Virus record (IMG/VR): IMGVR_UViG_3300047557_002769
Span: 64,001-128,000 of that record
Strand: one strand, 5' to 3'
DNA from: a virus
Length of the DNA stretch: 64,000 bases
This document shows positions 4,053-39,856 of this stretch, in pieces; position 1 is the stretch's first letter, and the number at the start of each line of letters is the position of its first letter. The position numbers were made by a program, and so were the translations under genes. Below the pieces are notes generated by a model. It was not told the origin of the DNA, ran no database searches, and saw only the letters and a list, made by a program, of their open reading frames with translations.

Positions 4053-4448
4053 TTATAGTTTCGAAACGGGGGTGTTTGACCAGAACTTACAGCTCCAATA
4101 ACGAGCTTTCCATTTAGGACCGGGATTATCGCAGTTGTGTCTTGCTCTAAAGCTTTTCTTTCTCTCTGGATTGTCACGTTTGATAGAAAGATTAGGATCG
4201 CCAAAATTTACTTTAACGACGTTACCCTTATCGTTCTTAACGTATACTGCTCTTTTTTTAGGGCCACCAGGTGTTAAAAAGGGCTTGTTAAGTTTACGAC
4301 CGCTAGAATCCTCTTCGTGGAGTTCACCCCAGTCTTCATAATCTTCCATGCCATCAGAAGCAAATGTTTCTTCTGTAATTCCAAAATCTTCGCTATGCTC
4401 TTCACAAAAAGCACAGCATTGTTCTCTTACCTGCTTAAATGTTTTCAT
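4053..4448 (-). CDS. Conserved phage protein (DUF6321-like)
   Basis: LNKPFLTPGGPKK..VYVKNDKGNVVKVNFGDP...RKKSFRARHNC..ARYWSC; N-terminal MKTFKQVRE. Confidence 0.65.
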   Translation of the reverse strand: MKTFKQVREQCCAFCEEHSEDFGITEETFASDGMEDYEDWGELHEEDSSGRKLNKPFLTPGGPKKRAVYVKNDKGNVVKVNFGDPNLSIKRDNPERKKSFRARHNCDNPGPKWKARYWSCKFWSNTPVSKL

Positions 4449-7030: not shown

Positions 7031-7657
7031 TTAGTATATCCAGAACCCTAACCTATCCCCGCTAGGGCAATCATACCAGATAGATCCTTCGGGTTGCTCA
7101 CTTTGTTCATCTCTCCATACCGGAATTGCATTTCTGTAAGAATGATGCGCAAAATCATCGTTATATCTAAGATGTATTTCTATTACTTTATCTCCGATAA
7201 GCTCAAAATTTACCCACTTATACTTGAGGTAGAATCCACCTAATGATTTAGGTATCGTAAAATCTTCATCTAGTCGCACCCATCGACTAAATCTATCTAA
7301 TCTTTCCGAGTCTCTAAAACCCTCTGCTGCAACAGTCTGAACACCTCTTAAATAGTCAACTGTAATATGTCTACCCTCTAACCACTCACACCAAAAATAT
7401 CCATCTGGTACTTGGTCTGTATCATTAGGTGTAAGCCATATCTTCCTTGCACCGCGCGACATCATTCTCAAATTTGTAATAGGTCTTATAATATACCAGT
7501 TATCTTTAGGCACTGGTATACCAGCAGGGGCAGCCTGTAATCCTTGTTTTTTCGCTACAATTAACTTATCGTAAATCCATAAATCATCAGTATTAACTTT
7601 ATGCCAAACGTCTTTATCGTCTATAAACATTACTTGCTGTGCATATTGATATACCAA
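7031..7657 (-). CDS. Hypothetical protein, possibly ATP-grasp-like
   Basis: IIRPITNL, CEWLEGRHITVDY, NFELIGDKVIEIHLR resemble a degenerate ATP-grasp; start probably 7630. Confidence 0.4.
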   Translation of the reverse strand: MVYQYAQQVMFIDDKDVWHKVNTDDLWIYDKLIVAKKQGLQAAPAGIPVPKDNWYIIRPITNLRMMSRGARKIWLTPNDTDQVPDGYFWCEWLEGRHITVDYLRGVQTVAAEGFRDSERLDRFSRWVRLDEDFTIPKSLGGFYLKYKWVNFELIGDKVIEIHLRYNDDFAHHSYRNAIPVWRDEQSEQPEGSIWYDCPSGDRLGFWIY

Positions 7658-34187: not shown

Positions 34188-34272
34188 TGGTGCCCGGGGC
34201 GGGATTCGAACCCGCACGCTTTTTTAGCGGGGGATTTTAAGTCCCCTGTGTCTACCGTTCCACCACCCGGGC
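34188..34272 (-). tRNA. tRNA-Leu(TAA)
   Basis: Cloverleaf, CT-TAA-AA loop, long variable arm, CCA. Confidence 0.92.
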
Positions 34273-34277
34273 TTAGT

Positions 34278-34351
34278 TGGTGCCCCTAGAGGGAATCGAA
34301 CCCCCACCTGATGCTTACAAGGCAACTGCACGACCTTCATGCTACAGGGGC
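34278..34351 (-). tRNA. tRNA-Thr(TGT)
   Basis: CT-TGT-AA loop, GTTCGATTC, CCA. Confidence 0.9.
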
Positions 34352-34356
34352 AAATT

Positions 34357-34830
34357 TTAAGCAGCTAGCAACTCTTTAAGTCTATCTGCAGCATAAGAAG
34401 CTGCAAAAGCTTTAGGCTTAACCATTGGTACAACGTTACAAACACCTCTAATATAACCTACTGCTTGCTGAATTACAATACTTGAATTATAGTGCTCGTC
34501 AGGGTTAATATCAAGATGAATCTGCACTTCACGGTCACCAATTACATCAACAAGTTTTTGATACAACTCAGCCACCTTGTAAACCTCATTCATTAGACGA
34601 GTTGCAGGCCTGGAAGCTTTTGCATCGTAATCAATCTCCGTCTGTACTTCGCCAAAGATTTTGCAACCATGGCGACCGTCAATGTGTACAACGATAGCCA
34701 AAGTGTAGTCAGCAACCCATTTATCGTTACGCTTAATTCTTTCCGAATCAGCCCCGATATAGATTTTTGTCTCCGGGCTCTGCGCGTCGATGAATGCTTT
34801 TACTTCGTCAATGTTAATAGATTTATTCAT
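34357..34830 (-). CDS. RNase H-like YkuK (DUF458) family protein
   Basis: IYIGADS, RLMNEV, IHLDIN, ASYAAD; track start overlaps tRNA-Gly, so start reset to 34830. Confidence 0.8.
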   Translation of the reverse strand: MNKSINIDEVKAFIDAQSPETKIYIGADSERIKRNDKWVADYTLAIVVHIDGRHGCKIFGEVQTEIDYDAKASRPATRLMNEVYKVAELYQKLVDVIGDREVQIHLDINPDEHYNSSIVIQQAVGYIRGVCNVVPMVKPKAFAASYAADRLKELLAA

Positions 34831-34844
34831 GGCACTACTATTTA

Positions 34845-34921
34845 TGGAGCGGGTAACGAGACTCGAACTCGTACCGTCTGCTTGGAAGGCAGTCATGCTA
34901 GCCGTTAAACACCATACCCGC
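34845..34921 (-). tRNA. tRNA-Gly(TCC)
   Basis: GCGGGTA acceptor, CT-TCC-AA, TCCA end. Confidence 0.92.
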
Positions 34922-34925
34922 TTAT

Positions 34926-35000
34926 TGGTCCGCCGAGAGGGAATCGAACCCCCATTAAGAGCTTAGAAGGCTCCTGTTCTATCCATTGAACTATCGGCAG
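34926..35000 (-). tRNA. tRNA-Arg(TCT)
   Basis: CT-TCT-AA loop, CCA. Confidence 0.92.
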
Positions 35001-35076
35001 ATGTATTATTATATCCTATTTTAAACTAAAAAACAACTCTAATTGTTACGCTTACTAAATAACTAAGGGTGACAAT

Positions 35077-35478
35077 ATGACTAAAAATAAAAAAGATAAC
35101 GAACTTTCCTTTAAAGAAGATTGGATGAATAGAAAATGGCGTCCAATGATGGGGTGGATGTACATGATTGTATGTATCACCGATTTTATCATTTTTCCCG
35201 TTTTCTGGTCAATCGTACAACTTAAAGGTGGCGGTAACGTTAAGGAAGCATGGCAGCCTTTGACGTTACAAGGCGCTGGATTGTTTCATGTAGCCATGGG
35301 TGTGGTACTTGGTCTTACTACCTGGGGCAGAACACGTGAACGTATATCTACCAATCAGATGTATGCGCAGTTACCACAAGAACCACAGTTCTACGAAGAG
35401 CGTTCCGTAAGAAAAACAACTGTTAGACCGGAAATAACACCGCCTACCAGACGACCGTTTATTGACCCCGGAGATTAA
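35077..35478 (+). CDS. Holin (3TM-holin family-like)
   Basis: W...WRPMMGW, hydrophobic segments, LG...WGRT.ER; adjacent to endolysin. Confidence 0.7.
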   Translation: MTKNKKDNELSFKEDWMNRKWRPMMGWMYMIVCITDFIIFPVFWSIVQLKGGGNVKEAWQPLTLQGAGLFHVAMGVVLGLTTWGRTRERISTNQMYAQLPQEPQFYEERSVRKTTVRPEITPPTRRPFIDPGD

Positions 35479-36101
35479 CTCACCAGAACGTCGATAGCAT
35501 GGTTGTAGTGTTTAATTCTATCGGCTAATCCTATCTTACCTCCATTTATAAGTATAGTCATACCTTCAATATCCGCTATATCAGCGAACGGATTCAAATC
35601 TCTTACATACCAGTACCAACAAGCTGAATGAACTGCACCCCTAGGTGTTTCTAGATAAGTAGGTGCCTCTTCTAAACTGATGTTGCAATATTCTGCAAAG
35701 GTAGAATAGTTAGATCTACCAGTTAGTTGAATTAAACCTCTACCTCTGTAACGAAAACCGTCTCCACTTGCCTCGCTGCTGTTACCCATTCTATTGGCGT
35801 AAACTTTATTAGCAATTTTTGCTGGTTGCCTGTGATAGGGTTGCGCAGACTCGAGTGTAGGAAATCGTTTGGGCCACGTACGCATTAGACCTTGTGCGCT
35901 GTAATTAAGATTTTCTTCTAGCGCAGTATAACCAGCCGACTCATGAGCAGTCTGTGCAATAAATGCAGCTACTCTTTGCACCGAAATTATTTCAAACGTA
36001 GGTAGAATTTCTTCTAGCTCTTTAAACCAAACACCTACACCAAATTTAGCTTTAGGTATAAGTTCTGATAGTTTTTCTTCTGTAAAGTCGAATTCAAACA
36101 T
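35475..36101 (-). CDS. GH19 endolysin
   Basis: FIAQTAHES, LEENLNYS, YRGRGLIQLTGRSNY, INGGKIGLADR. Confidence 0.92.
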   Translation of the reverse strand: MFEFDFTEEKLSELIPKAKFGVGVWFKELEEILPTFEIISVQRVAAFIAQTAHESAGYTALEENLNYSAQGLMRTWPKRFPTLESAQPYHRQPAKIANKVYANRMGNSSEASGDGFRYRGRGLIQLTGRSNYSTFAEYCNISLEEAPTYLETPRGAVHSACWYWYVRDLNPFADIADIEGMTILINGGKIGLADRIKHYNHAIDVLVS

Positions 36102-36132
36102 AAGCCCTCCCTTTTTAAATATTTAGAGCTTA

Positions 36133-36206
36133 TGGTGCTGCTAGCAAGAATCGAACTTGCGTTACCGCCTTACCAAGGCGACGTAATACCATTATACTAT
36201 AGCAGC
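36133..36206 (-). tRNA. tRNA-Thr(GGT)
   Basis: TT-GGT-AA loop, CCA. Confidence 0.9.
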
Positions 36207-36210
36207 ATAT

Positions 36211-36287
36211 TGGCCCGTCCTGAAGAATTCGAATCTCCAACCTCTGAGTTCGTAGCCCAGTGCACTATCCAGTTGTGCTAAGGACGG
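36211..36287 (-). tRNA. tRNA-Arg(ACG)
   Basis: CT-ACG-AA loop, GCCA. Confidence 0.9.
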
Positions 36288-36290
36288 TTA

Positions 36291-36365
36291 TGGATGCGGG
36301 AGACGGAATCGAACCGCCGTTCTCCAGGTTATGAGCCTGACGAGATACCTCTTCTCCATCCCGCG
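36291..36365 (-). tRNA. tRNA-fMet(CAT), initiator-like
   Basis: CGCGGG start with C1:A72 mismatch, CT-CAT-AA. Confidence 0.85.
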
Positions 36366-36371
36366 TAATTT

Positions 36372-36446
36372 TGGTGGTGATAGTTGGTAACGATCCAACC
36401 TGTGAGGCGTATGAAACCCCTGCATATCCGTCTATGCTATATCACC
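36372..36446 (-). tRNA. tRNA-Met(CAT), elongator-like
   Basis: TT-CAT-AC loop; T-loop ATCGTTA; CCA. Confidence 0.8.
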
Positions 36447-36447
36447 G

Positions 36448-36540
36448 TGGTCCCCGAGGTGAGATTCGAACTCACGACCTGCCGCTTATCTGGCGCTGAC
36501 GGGGTATAAATCCGCTGCTCTACCGCTGAGCTACCCGGGG
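36448..36540 (-). tRNA. Atypical 93-nt tRNA with TAT anticodon (Ile?) and long extra arm
   Basis: Canonical D and T arms, TT-TAT-AC loop, ~23-nt variable region, ACCA. Confidence 0.6.
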
Positions 36541-36545
36541 TAAAT

Positions 36546-36635
36546 TGGCCGAGAGTCAGGGAGTCGAACCCTGTGACCGTATTACTACAGTCTACGGATT
36601 AGCAATCCGCTGCATTACCATCCTGCCCACTCTCG
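36546..36635 (-). tRNA. tRNA-Ser(GCT)
   Basis: TT-GCT-AA, long variable arm, GCCA. Confidence 0.92.
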
Positions 36636-36639
36636 TTAT

Positions 36640-36729
36640 TGGAGGAAGCGGTGGGATTCGAACCCACGGACCGCTTTCACGATCGCTAGTTTTCAAGACT
36701 AGAGCCATCAACCACTCGACCACGCTTCC
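36640..36729 (-). tRNA. tRNA-Ser(TGA)
   Basis: CT-TGA-AA, long variable arm, CCA. Confidence 0.92.
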
Positions 36730-36734
36730 TTAAT

Positions 36735-36810
36735 TGGTGCCGCCTCTCTGTTACGATCAGAGTTCTCTGGTTCTTCAGACCAGCGTGAGGACCACCTTCA
36801 CCAAAGCGGC
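36735..36810 (-). tRNA. tRNA-Phe(GAA)
   Basis: CT-GAA-GA loop; T-loop ATCGTAA. Confidence 0.85.
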
Positions 36811-36814
36811 ATAT

Positions 36815-36888
36815 TGGGTTGAACCGGGGAATCGAACCCTCTCTACTTGTTTCACGGACAAGTGTGCGACCACTACACTAGGAACAAC
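36815..36888 (-). tRNA. tRNA-His(GTG)
   Basis: G-1:C73, CC-GTG-AA loop; two U:U mismatches in acceptor stem. Confidence 0.75.
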
Positions 36889-36894
36889 ATTAAC

Positions 36895-36968
36895 TGGCAG
36901 GGATGCTTGGAATCGAACCAAGGACACGGGAATCAAAATCCTGTGTGATACCATTTCACCACACCCCA
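36895..36968 (-). tRNA. tRNA-Gln(TTG)
   Basis: TGGGGTG start, TT-TTG-AT, GCCA. Confidence 0.9.
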
Positions 36969-36978
36969 ACAAAAAAAC

Positions 36979-37054
36979 TGGTCTCCGTAAGAGGATTTGA
37001 ACCCCTACCGCCTGACCCCAAATCAGGAACGCTGCCAGATTACGCTATACGGAG
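36979..37054 (-). tRNA. tRNA-Pro(TGG)
   Basis: TT-TGG-GG loop, ACCA. Confidence 0.9.
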
Positions 37055-37062
37055 AATAAATT

Positions 37063-37141
37063 TGGTGGACCCAATGACCAGCTACAGTCAATGCCCGCAA
37101 CCAGGGTTACTGGCGGTCGCTCTTATTGCTACCGAGGGCCC
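37063..37141 (-). ncRNA. tRNA-like RNA with Ala-type acceptor (G3:U70, A73, CCA) but no canonical anticodon or T-loop
   Basis: GGGCCC...GGGTCC-A-CCA; spaced like a tRNA unit in the array. Confidence 0.6.
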
Positions 37142-37151
37142 ATAAATTGTT

Positions 37152-37227
37152 TGGTGGAAGATAGGGGAATCGAACCCCTGACTCCGACTTGCAAGGCCGG
37201 CGTGTTCCCAATTAGCACCAATCCCCC
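37152..37227 (-). tRNA. tRNA-Ala(TGC)
   Basis: CT-TGC-AA, G3:U70, ACCA. Confidence 0.92.
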
Positions 37228-37231
37228 ATTA

Positions 37232-37313
37232 CCATATTGAAGCACACTAGCACCACAGCAACCGGCTCAATGGCGGGGAGTCGAACCCACTTTGTTAATG
37301 CACTTCAATATGG
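37232..37313 (-). repeat. CCA-anchored stem cassette A
   Basis: CCATATTGAAGTGCATT...AGTGTGCTTCAATATGG terminal stem. Confidence 0.8.
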
Positions 37314-37528
37314 CCCCAGCCCCTACACTGGGTACATATTGTCTTCTGAGTCGGCAGAAGATTTTATCTCCTGTTGTTCCGCGTTTCTCGGACGACGATC
37401 CTCAGGCCTAGACATCCGTATGCGAAGTCCACCATCACTCGCATATTTTTAATGACGGGGCTTTCACCCGCCTCGGTATTGTTTGCTCTGCTAACCACTA
37501 GGGAATGTGGCAACAAGAGTACCGGGAC
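37311..37528 (-). ncRNA. ~218-nt structured RNA ending in CCA
   Basis: Ends pair (CCCGGT/GCTGGG-G-CCA); several hairpins; no convincing coding ORF. Confidence 0.5.
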
Positions 37529-37540
37529 TAATTGTTAATC

Positions 37541-37615
37541 TGGTGCATCGTGAGAGGATTGAACTCCCGACCTTGGCCTTGTAAGGGCCCTGCTCTACCG
37601 CTGAGCTAACGATGC
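37541..37615 (-). tRNA. tRNA-Val(TAC)
   Basis: CT-TAC-AA, ACCA. Confidence 0.9.
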
Positions 37616-37621
37616 GTAATA

Positions 37622-37714
37622 TGGTGGGTGTCCACGGAGTCGAACCGCGAATGTTTACCACGAGGGACCGGATTTACAGTCCGGTGCAGCACACGCCTTA
37701 GCTGCAAGACACCC
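37622..37714 (-). tRNA. tRNA-Tyr(GTA)
   Basis: CT-GTA-AA, long variable arm, ACCA. Confidence 0.88.
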
Positions 37715-37722
37715 ATAAAACT

Positions 37723-37799
37723 TGGCTGACCAGGTAGGGATCGAACCCACGACATCGTGATTAACAGTCACGCGCAACTACCAACTGTGCTACTGGTCA
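37723..37799 (-). tRNA. tRNA-Asn(GTT)
   Basis: CT-GTT-AA, GCCA. Confidence 0.92.
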
Positions 37800-37807
37800 A
37801 AAAACTC

Positions 37808-37883
37808 TGGAGCGGGTAATCGGTTTCGAACCGATGGCCTTAACTTTGGCAAAGTTACGCTCTACCAACTGAGCTATACCCGC
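37808..37883 (-). tRNA. tRNA-Gly(GCC)
   Basis: TT-GCC-AA, TCCA. Confidence 0.92.
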
Positions 37884-37887
37884 TTAA

Positions 37888-37998
37888 CCATATTGAAACA
37901 CACTCGACGGAATCGAACCGTCCACCTCTGCTCCATACGGGGCAAGGCTGTATCCAGTCAGTAGGCTTGTACTTTGCCTTGAATGTGCTTCAATATGG
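37888..37998 (-). repeat. CCA-anchored stem cassette B
   Basis: CCATATTGAAGCACATTC...GAGTGTGTTTCAATATGG; interior has D-loop-like and T-arm hairpins. Confidence 0.8.
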
Positions 37999-38130
37999 TC
38001 TCGGGTTTGCACCGAGATCACCGACTAAACGGCTTTCGCTAGTGATTCACTCATATTACTTGCAGGTCATATGAGGCTCTATGCGATGCTTAAAGACTGA
38101 TTAAAAGGGCCTGCATTAGTTACCAGTCTC
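37996..38130 (-). ncRNA. ~135-nt structured RNA ending in hairpin-CCA
   Basis: 3' TCTCGG-TGCAAAC-CCGAGA-CCA; internal hairpins GACTG/CAGTC, CTCATAT/ATATGAG, ATCACT/GGTGAT. Confidence 0.5.
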
Positions 38131-38135
38131 AAAAA

Positions 38136-38219
38136 CCATATTGAAACATACTGCACTAGTCAATTGAATACAGTTGACCAGTCTTCCTTATCAGTGAAGC
38201 GCAATACGTTTCAATATGG
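38136..38219 (-). repeat. CCA-anchored stem cassette C
   Basis: CCATATTGAAACGTATTGC...GCAGTATGTTTCAATATGG. Confidence 0.8.
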
Positions 38220-38293
38220 TGCCCCAGAGGAGACTCGAACTCCTAAAATTTGGCTTCTAAGACCAACACGTATACCAATTCCGTCACCAGGGC
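38217..38293 (-). tRNA. tRNA-Leu(TAG) with short variable loop
   Basis: CT-TAG-AA, Leu-type D arm, only 5-nt variable region, ACCA. Confidence 0.85.
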
Positions 38294-38332
38294 ATTATAA
38301 CAATTATATATTATCTTATTTTTAAAATCAAC

Positions 38333-38407
38333 TGGCGGTCCCAAGGAGTAACGATCTCCTTCTTCATGCGTGACAGGCATGCGTGCGTCCATGAACACTT
38401 TGAGACC
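38333..38407 (-). tRNA. tRNA-Asp(GTC)
   Basis: CT-GTC-AC; T-loop ATCGTTA; GCCA. Confidence 0.88.
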
Positions 38408-38414
38408 TTATGAA

Positions 38415-38645
38415 TTTGTTAAGCGCCAGCCACCACATACATCGGCTGCATTATCCGCAAATTATCCCGGGTGCGGTTATGATCGGATAAGCTCTTTTAC
38501 AGATAACTTATCTTCACCTAGGGTACGTCACAATAATAATCAGCAGGCGGGTGCCATGGTACGTCCTTGAACCGTCACCTTTTTACTATGCTAGATCTTG
38601 CAAAATCATCACACAGTGCCTTTTATTAGAGACACACTTAACAAA
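38415..38645 (-). ncRNA. ~230-nt stem-enclosed structured RNA
   Basis: TTTGTTAAGTGT/GCGCTTAACAAA closing stem; internal hairpins; between tRNA-Glu and tRNA-Asp. Confidence 0.5.
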
Positions 38646-38648
38646 ACT

Positions 38649-38723
38649 TGGTACTCCTGAAGGGTTTCGATCCCTCTTTTCCGCCTTGAAAGGGCAGCGT
38701 CCTAGCCAGTAGACGACAGGAGC
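38649..38723 (-). tRNA. tRNA-Glu(TTC)
   Basis: CT-TTC-AA; T-loop ATCGAAA; CCA. Confidence 0.88.
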
Positions 38724-38730
38724 ATTATTC

Positions 38731-38804
38731 TGGCATCCCGGGAGGGACTCGAACCCCCACAAACGGTTTTGGAGACCGCTATGCTGCCATTACACCACCG
38801 AGAT
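38731..38804 (-). tRNA. tRNA-Trp(CCA)
   Basis: CT-CCA-AA, GCCA. Confidence 0.9.
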
Positions 38805-38805
38805 A

Positions 38806-39117
38806 TTAATAACCGTTTGCGAATACGGTTTTTTGAGTAACTTCTTGAACAAAGGCACCGCATGTATACGTATCACCTTGTCTTGCGACGTTACGACCGT
38901 TCGCAAATACATTAGGGCTAAACGAGTTGATAGTTGTTGAATAAACAGGTGGGCAGTGCGTGTGTGGAGTATTCGTATCATCTTTACGATGTATTCCTAC
39001 CCCTGCAACAAACACATTCGTAGAACAACTTAAAGTTCTAATAAGCCCCGGAACAATACATACCGGGTGTCCCGTGTTAACAATATCAACCTCGTCGCCT
39101 CTTGCAATTAATGGCAT
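38806..39117 (-). CDS. PAAR-type spike tip protein (gp5.4-like)
   Basis: MPLIARGD..TGH..STNVF..G.GIHRKDD..H.H..SPNVFANG..VARQGD..CG..VFANG; AGGAGG SD before ATG 39117. Confidence 0.85.
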   Translation of the reverse strand: MPLIARGDEVDIVNTGHPVCIVPGLIRTLSCSTNVFVAGVGIHRKDDTNTPHTHCPPVYSTTINSFSPNVFANGRNVARQGDTYTCGAFVQEVTQKTVFANGY

Positions 39118-39149
39118 ATTATCCTCCTTTTTATATTTAGGATAATAAC

Positions 39150-39227
39150 TGGAGTATCGGGTCAGATTCGAACTGACGGTTTTACGGATTTGCAATCCGT
39201 TGCCTTTGACCGCTCGGCCACCGATAC
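39150..39227 (-). tRNA. tRNA-Cys(GCA)
   Basis: TT-GCA-AA, U73, CCA. Confidence 0.92.
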
Positions 39228-39231
39228 ACTA

Positions 39232-39354
39232 CCATATTGAAACACACTGCACTATCTAGATGCTTAAGTAGCTGTCACCGGCCGGTTTGTATCTACTATC
39301 TACACCCTACGCTCTCTTGGCCAAGAGAATGGCTTGCAATGTGCTTCAATATGG
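39232..39354 (-). repeat. CCA-anchored stem cassette D
   Basis: CCATATTGAAGCACATTGCA...TGCAGTGTGTTTCAATATGG. Confidence 0.8.
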
Positions 39355-39425
39355 TAGGGCTGGAGGGTAACGATCCCTCTTCTACGGATTAAAAGTCCGT
39401 TGCTTCACCTTAAAGCTTCAACCCC
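39352..39425 (-). tRNA. tRNA-Lys(TTT)
   Basis: CT-TTT-AA; T-loop ATCGTTA; ACCA. Confidence 0.88.
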
Positions 39426-39429
39426 AATA

Positions 39430-39503
39430 TGGTACCCACAACAGGTAACGATCCTGTGTCTCTCGGTTATCAGCCGAGTGCTCTACCTTTGAGCTATGCG
39501 GGT
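39430..39503 (-). tRNA. tRNA-Ile(GAT)
   Basis: CT-GAT-AA; T-loop ATCGTTA; ACCA; first tRNA of the array. Confidence 0.88.
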
Positions 39504-39525: not shown

Positions 39526-39538
39526 TTTTTAAAGAACA
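39526..39538 (-). promoter_or_regulatory. boxA-like antitermination site
   Basis: TGTTCTTTAAAAA versus rrn boxA TGCTCTTTAACA, between promoter and first tRNA. Confidence 0.65.
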
Positions 39539-39550
39539 ATTGATAGAAGA

Positions 39551-39579
39551 ATTATAACTCATCTATCGTTATTGCGCAA
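39551..39579 (-). promoter_or_regulatory. Proximal tRNA-array promoter (P2)
   Basis: TTGCGC-17 nt-TATAAT. Confidence 0.6.
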
Positions 39580-39600
39580 CTGTTACGACGACTGTTACGC

Positions 39601-39671
39601 AATAAAAAACCCCTAGGGTTTTGAAGCCTAGGGGTACGTGTTTAGAACAGTTTACTCTTTACACGTACCCC
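39601..39671 (-). terminator. Transcription attenuator with mutually exclusive antiterminator and terminator
   Basis: GGGGTACGTGT(39671-61) pairs with ACACGTACCCC(39641-31); ACCCCTAGG(39635-27) pairs with CCTAGGGGT(39617-09) followed by a T-run. Confidence 0.85.
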
Positions 39672-39772
39672 GGTGGATTATCCCACTCTGAGGCCACACA
39701 AATGCCAAAGCGATAGCCGGGCATTTGACTGCCTGTCGATCTCTTTGTTAGTTGATGCATTTGTGTTAACAT
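39659..39772 (-). CDS. 37-aa leader peptide containing all 20 amino acids (not in ORF track)
   Basis: MLTQMHQLTKRSTGSQMPGYRFGICVASEWDNPPGYV*; last codons and stop overlap the antiterminator 5' arm; ATG 6 nt after the -10 box. Confidence 0.75.
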   Translation of the reverse strand: MLTQMHQLTKRSTGSQMPGYRFGICVASEWDNPPGYV

Positions 39773-39778
39773 ACGTGA

Positions 39779-39807
39779 ATTATAAGCTATTTCTTAACTT
39801 TGTGCAA
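39779..39807 (-). promoter_or_regulatory. Distal promoter (P1) driving the leader peptide and attenuator
   Basis: TTGCAC-17 nt-TATAAT, same class as the early-region promoters. Confidence 0.8.
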
Positions 39808-39856
39808 CTGTTACATTGCGTGTTTCGTACTAATATATAGGCTTGAAAGACTATTT

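Follow-up and report, generated by a model that had tools for sequence, protein, structure and literature searches.

Why phages carry full sets of tRNA genes is a long-running question, for which codon bias, degradation of host tRNAs and anti-defence have been advanced as reasons. The locus studied here raises a particular form of it: what is a 37-codon open reading frame (ORF) containing all 20 amino acids doing between a promoter and such a set? The window, that is, the whole stretch of 64,000 nucleotides that was analysed, belongs to the 163-kb genome of an uncultured T4-like phage represented by a single contig. This genome carries T4-type late promoters, and its T4-type DNA polymerase is about 48% identical to cyanophage enzymes. 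All features described below lie on the minus strand of the window. The tRNA array (34188..39503, called by ARAGORN and Rfam) comprises 27 genes that together serve all 20 amino acids; small genes and other RNAs lie scattered among them. Most of the closest cellular relatives of a small gene inside the array belonged to Burkholderiales and other Betaproteobacteria, a weak hint, by sequence similarity, at the host group. The array also contains a PAAR-motif gene (38806-39195), whose true start is probably an internal ATG past tRNA-Cys; a non-tRNA insert between tRNA-Lys and tRNA-Cys that is enclosed by long complementary arms (approximately 39228-39356); and a 93-nt tRNA with a long variable arm, called Ile with anticodon TAT (36448-36540), a gene common in related arrays.

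The first-pass annotation had placed at this locus a promoter, an ATG, the ORF, a helix, a terminator, a second promoter, a boxA and the tRNA genes, and every element was found where it had been put. The sigma-70-type promoter P1 (39779..39807) consists of TTGCAC (39807-39802), a 17-nt spacer and TATAAT (39784-39779), followed after 6 nt by the ATG (39772) of the leader ORF (39659..39772). From this 6-nt spacing, transcription is inferred to start at the ATG itself, leaving the ORF leaderless, which is plausible because another promoter of the phage shows the identical -10-to-ATG arrangement. P1 belongs to a family of such promoters in the phage, and its -10 box and the ATG were retained in 8 homologs of one lineage, termed A. 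Two motifs were noted further upstream. One, CTATATATT (39832-39840), has three genome copies, resembles a motif that precedes leaders in other lineages and is possibly a variant late promoter. The other, a GTAACAG element with eight genome copies on one strand only, lies ahead of both P1 and the second promoter and extends into the -35 box (39804-39813 and 39576-39586). That second sigma-70-type promoter, P2 (39551..39579), has a perfect -10 box and lies directly ahead of a boxA-like element (39526..39538) that presumably acts in antitermination; elements similar to boxA were found in many homologs. The warning that P2 bypasses the attenuator was justified, as the promoter is present in the sequence.

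A recount of the leader ORF bore out the claims that it contains all 20 amino acids, a set completed by Asn at codon 32, and that 14 successive residues (Y20-P33) are all different. Most amino acids occur one to three times and none more than four times in 37 codons; there is only one Ala, and no codon run for one to three amino acids. We also carried out the check that had been proposed on the chance of such an ORF. All 20 types are rare per 37 codons, with frequencies of 0.2% in six-frame windows, 0.4% for proteome or random-codon composition and 0.7% in base shuffles, and of the 493 short ORFs in this genome the leader alone had all 20 types. Its fold had a z-score of -4.8. Rfam covariance models run over the leader gave nothing near the gathering score and no T-box or riboswitch match, a blastn comparison of the leader with cultured phages returned tRNA matches only, a search with the exact arm pattern had no match, and the leader peptide was not found in the protein collection.

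As the first-pass annotation had described, the last codons and the stop pair with a segment that overlaps the 5′ arm of the terminator. Specifically, an antiterminator 5′ arm running from the end of codon 34 to the first stop base (39661..39671) forms an 11-bp helix with a 3′ arm (39631..39641) that has 5 nt in common with the terminator stem (39671-39661 / 39641-39631). The intrinsic terminator (39601..39635, -14.7 kcal/mol) has a 9-bp stem (39635-39627 / 39617-39609), a 9-nt loop and a T tract. According to computed folds and co-variation, without structure probing, the two structures are mutually exclusive. In the absence of a ribosome the antiterminator won the fold, making read-through the predicted default. 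When the ribosome was modelled as a mask, the antiterminator survived stalling as far as codon 32 with a footprint reaching 5 nt past the A site, or codon 31 with one reaching 9 nt, and covering the arm yielded the full terminator. The last new residue of this copy ends 5 nt ahead of the arm, and among leaders this gap is often just 2-5 nt, which means that a ribosome held at the final codons may partly mask the arm; the earlier caveat to that effect stands. Inside the ORF, an 8-bp hairpin (39699..39727) is predicted from sequence and fold, and a role in RNA polymerase pausing is possible, by inference only. It was not conserved in the form of this copy, and the lineage-A consensus hairpins showed little co-variation. 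Codons 33-35 encode Pro-Pro-Gly (39668-39676), a known EF-P-dependent slow motif lying on the antiterminator arm, where it could hold the ribosome. The motif was not conserved in relatives, and we do not regard it as an essential feature.

Because the feature had been noticed after the fact, relatives were selected by an unrelated neighbour: they were fetched via an unrelated gene in the array and the DNA ahead of the first tRNA was read. Arrays of at least 15 tRNAs gave 21 distinct heads, 14 of which had an all-20 ORF of 31-42 codons; another five had an ORF with 19 types, so that at least 19 types were reached at 19 of the 21. The same search in control windows found all 20 types in 1 of 1,076 and at least 19 in 36 of 1,076. 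When these gene-selected loci were combined with loci picked by terminator or boxA patterns, such an ORF accompanied 50 of the 71 terminators that precede tRNAs, a tally in which some occur twice, and 12 of 413 other terminators; several of these 12 stand at the head of an array whose tRNA is distant or truncated. The leaders form about seven lineages, which are related, and the homologs are therefore not independent samples. We chose 28 representatives with less than 70% identity; because having at least 19 types was a condition of this choice, the tests of duplex, position and codons below hold only given that condition, and a "rescue" ratio of 1717:104 was left unused as circular for the same reason. 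The nearest representative is 42% identical to this leader, and simulated drift to 42% identity kept all 20 types in 1.4% of runs. Leader frame and start were conserved among homologs. Judged from these comparisons, the conserved trait of the leaders is composition, not sequence.

Near-complete ORFs despite divergent sequence, with co-varying arm and terminator, were what a look upstream of related arrays had been expected to reveal, and both were found. The opposite outcome, a terminator kept while the ORF, its diversity or the overlap was lost, would have refuted the proposal; it was absent at 19 of 21 heads and was met in L074, a related 22-tRNA array with terminator and promoter and no leader. 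The reduced 9-tRNA arrays L053-L059 likewise had no leader. Among cultured phages, near-complete leaders were found in Xanthomonas phage X1 (39 codons, 19 types, ahead of 37 tRNAs), BUCT-ZZ01 (46 codons, 19 types) and Xanthomonas phage BUDD (18 types), making the design testable. Terminator scans of Stenotrophomonas DLP_6, Vibrio 1.081.O, Pseudomonas UNO-G1W1, Proteus Stubb, Ralstonia RSP15, Lak-A1, Aeromonas AsSzw2 and two T5-like vibriophages, and a scan of RcXuper and phiTY18, detected no such leader in these 11 phage records, which include T5-like and KVP40-like arrays, a provisional absence because only partial stretches were covered. A metagenome pattern scan returned mostly chance matches and gained two lineage-A copies, a search by PAAR neighbour reached loci without arrays, and cellular loci reached via one neighbour gene only had no large arrays.

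The predicted switch was conserved together with the composition. Terminator stems vary between lineages with compensated pairing, and the arm within the final codons mostly changes with them. Across the 28 representatives, the ORF end paired with its own terminator arm at a mean of -15.7 kcal/mol and with the arms of other lineages at -11.4 kcal/mol, compared with -7.6 kcal/mol for the shuffled control, -4.6 kcal/mol for windows further upstream in that ORF and -5.5 kcal/mol for unrelated pairs of short ORF and terminator. The geometry was similarly constrained: the distance from the start of the arm to the stop is 5-19 nt in 48 of 51 leaders, and the terminator follows 22-36 nt after the stop. 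Amino-acid coverage was complete before the arm in 21 of the 28 representatives (null 6.1 +/- 2.1, maximum 14 in 5,000 shuffles). The leader element is thus real and conserved.

These data bear on whether the ORF instead encodes a functional micropeptide or a nascent-chain arrest peptide, with the terminator ending its transcript and P2 driving the tRNAs. A single Trp is invariant within lineages, short motifs persist and in BUCT-ZZ01 the leader carries a CDS annotation, as a peptide function would allow. Nevertheless, identity to the representative homologs is at most 42% and length varies from 31 to 45 codons, singleton residues are conserved in place no better than repeated ones (57% vs 59%), the tail accommodates one-base frameshifts (L011, L016) and the co-varying arm is left unexplained by any peptide function, all of which makes this explanation very unlikely.

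How much an attenuator would matter in this phage depends on P2. Representatives had the leader behind a sigma-70-type -10 box at 6-8 nt (11) or behind a late promoter (10, some with a ribosome-binding site). A second promoter was present in 21 of 28 and absent in seven even by a loose pattern; in those seven, 36-58 nt separate the terminator from the first tRNA, and the switch appears to be the sole entry to the array. It might be argued that the family is real and that the switch is of little consequence here, P2 supplying nearly all array transcription, given its perfect -10 box directly before boxA and the leaderless array of L074 with its terminator and promoter. Such irrelevance hardly fits this copy: its ORF has the complete set of 20 types, its promoter is intact, and its cognate duplex (-22.3 kcal/mol) is the strongest seen for the terminator arm, with private changes in both arms. 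Features like these would be lost under decay, and we regard irrelevance as highly improbable. In the reading that we favour, the switch supplements the constitutive output of P2 in this phage.

If the leader is read as a sensor of decoding, its codons should correspond to the downstream tRNAs. Among downstream anticodons of multi-codon families, 211 of 266 had a codon before the arm, compared with 173 +/- 6 (maximum 195) under a null with amino acids held fixed and phage codon usage. Taken alone, this copy provides a codon before the arm, under strict wobble, for 11 of 15 tested anticodons (of Leu, Arg, Ser, Gly, Thr, Ile, Pro, Val and Ala), against 9.7 expected, which is not striking. Two corrections apply to the claim that the leader covers the phage isoacceptors: Gly-TCC would escape sensing because its GGG codon is part of the antiterminator arm, and the leader Ala codon is GCC, which the phage Ala-TGC reads by extended wobble only. 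The split arrays L151 (near 4070-4220 and 7480-7610) and L167 (minus strand) have several shorter leaders with a terminator per block, each enriched in the amino acids of the adjoining downstream tRNAs, and L259 (near 20800 and 23260) is a similar case; the all-20 leader thus appears to be the version of a broader design that serves one operon. A correspondence between missing residues and missing tRNAs was rejected: it holds for Phe in L039 and fails in several others, and several 19-type leaders lack a residue for which the array retains a tRNA (L064 Val, L070 Asp, L077 Cys, L205 Ala). As separate observations, L024, L039 and L046 have a second tRNA-Tyr(GTA) where relatives have tRNA-Phe in the order His-Phe-Ser, a position that suggests an anticodon switch, and the L039 leader is without Phe; CTA-anticodon tRNAs near the array ends of L077, L085, L251 and L253 are possible amber suppressors.

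The codon data also bear on a general timer of translation speed or coupling, responding to antibiotics, ribosome inhibition or cold, in which loss of a single tRNA would not switch the element and diversity would merely average speed. A low share of regulatory codons predicts low attenuator sensitivity, so one codon per amino acid should mean a weak response (PMC1183508), any block of translation would open a switch whose antiterminator is favoured without a ribosome, and missing residues do not track missing tRNAs. Averaging, however, needs neither the retention of the rare W, C and H at 19-20 of 20, nor isoacceptor matching, nor block-matched leaders in split arrays, and we consider a mere timer unlikely.

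An attenuator sensing many tRNAs has partial precedents. The trpL, hisL, thrL, ilvL and pheM leaders likewise combine a short ORF, an antiterminator opposed to an intrinsic terminator and a race between ribosome and polymerase (PMC1183508). Leaders of the trpL/hisL type use the codons of one to three amino acids repeatedly, and their targets are enzymes, whereas the phage leader has each amino acid about once and controls tRNAs; lacking a codon run, it is not of the trp/his type, and no conserved 1:2 pause hairpin as in those leaders was found among homologs. The sequence-testable features of an attenuator were present: a leader ORF between promoter and genes, control codons upstream of the arm and codons matching the product. 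The first-pass annotation had described established leaders as rich in only one or a few amino acids, which overlooks the whiB7 uORF of Mycobacterium smegmatis, with every amino acid but Cys (19/20). For 18 of the 20 amino acids, knocking down the respective pathway activates whiB7, a single Trp codon confers Trp sensing, and loss of the start codon raises basal expression (PMC10274678). The mycobacterial whiB7/wblC uORFs, whose stalling leads to antitermination as proposed here, are the closest mechanistic precedent, but they are chromosomal, control a transcription factor, are universally Ala-enriched and vary in coverage between species (PMC10274678). In the phage leaders the output is phage tRNA genes, and near-complete coverage is packed in 31-45 codons and conserved. 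The leader here is not of the whiB7/wblC type, having one Ala without enrichment, tRNA genes downstream and no Rfam match, and we claim no homology. The Anabaena trn operon is also a tRNA array (26 genes) activated by translational stress; it is plasmid-borne and regulated at initiation by the ribbon-helix-helix repressor TrcR, without attenuation (PMC10272220; see also PMC8421152). Lastly, tRNAs of T5-like phages rescue infection from anticodon-cleaving defences in a manner that depends on expression level, attributed to a strong promoter with no mention of attenuation or a leader (PMC11555353), and the T5-like arrays scanned here had no such leader. No published description of tRNA-gene attenuation or of phage leaders of this kind was found, in a search that left subscription journals mostly outside.

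Altogether, the observed anatomy, conserved diversity, arm-terminator complementarity and positional and codon biases support the view that the element is probably a ribosome-mediated attenuator that raises phage tRNA transcription when decoding fails, with start site, translation, switching and trigger inferred. In this model, RNA polymerase would start at the leader ATG with a ribosome following. Fast reading of all 32 test codons would bring the ribosome over the antiterminator arm as the terminator is made, and transcription would stop. A delay at a codon up to about 30-32, caused by a tRNA that is cut, uncharged or missing, or by translation that is generally slow or not started, would let the antiterminator form and the polymerase read into the tRNA genes. 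As most amino acids occur one to three times, the element would be expected to react when one tRNA is severely depleted or translation slows globally, and not to mild starvation. Whether the leader goes further, auditing the whole decoding pool down to single isoacceptors and detecting attack by host anticodon nucleases or tRNA loss caused by infection to turn on the replacement array, as a widespread phage loop, is a stronger proposition that we hold to be evenly balanced.

If the array does rise when decoding fails, phage tRNAs would be an on-demand rescue, an idea testable with a reporter of about 200 nt, and the leader offers a compact sensor of tRNA damage. Such leaders would also represent a class of tiny genes selected for composition rather than sequence and missed by homology searches. 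Were the all-amino-acid feedback loop true, it would constitute an inducible counter-defence that works without a protein sensor.
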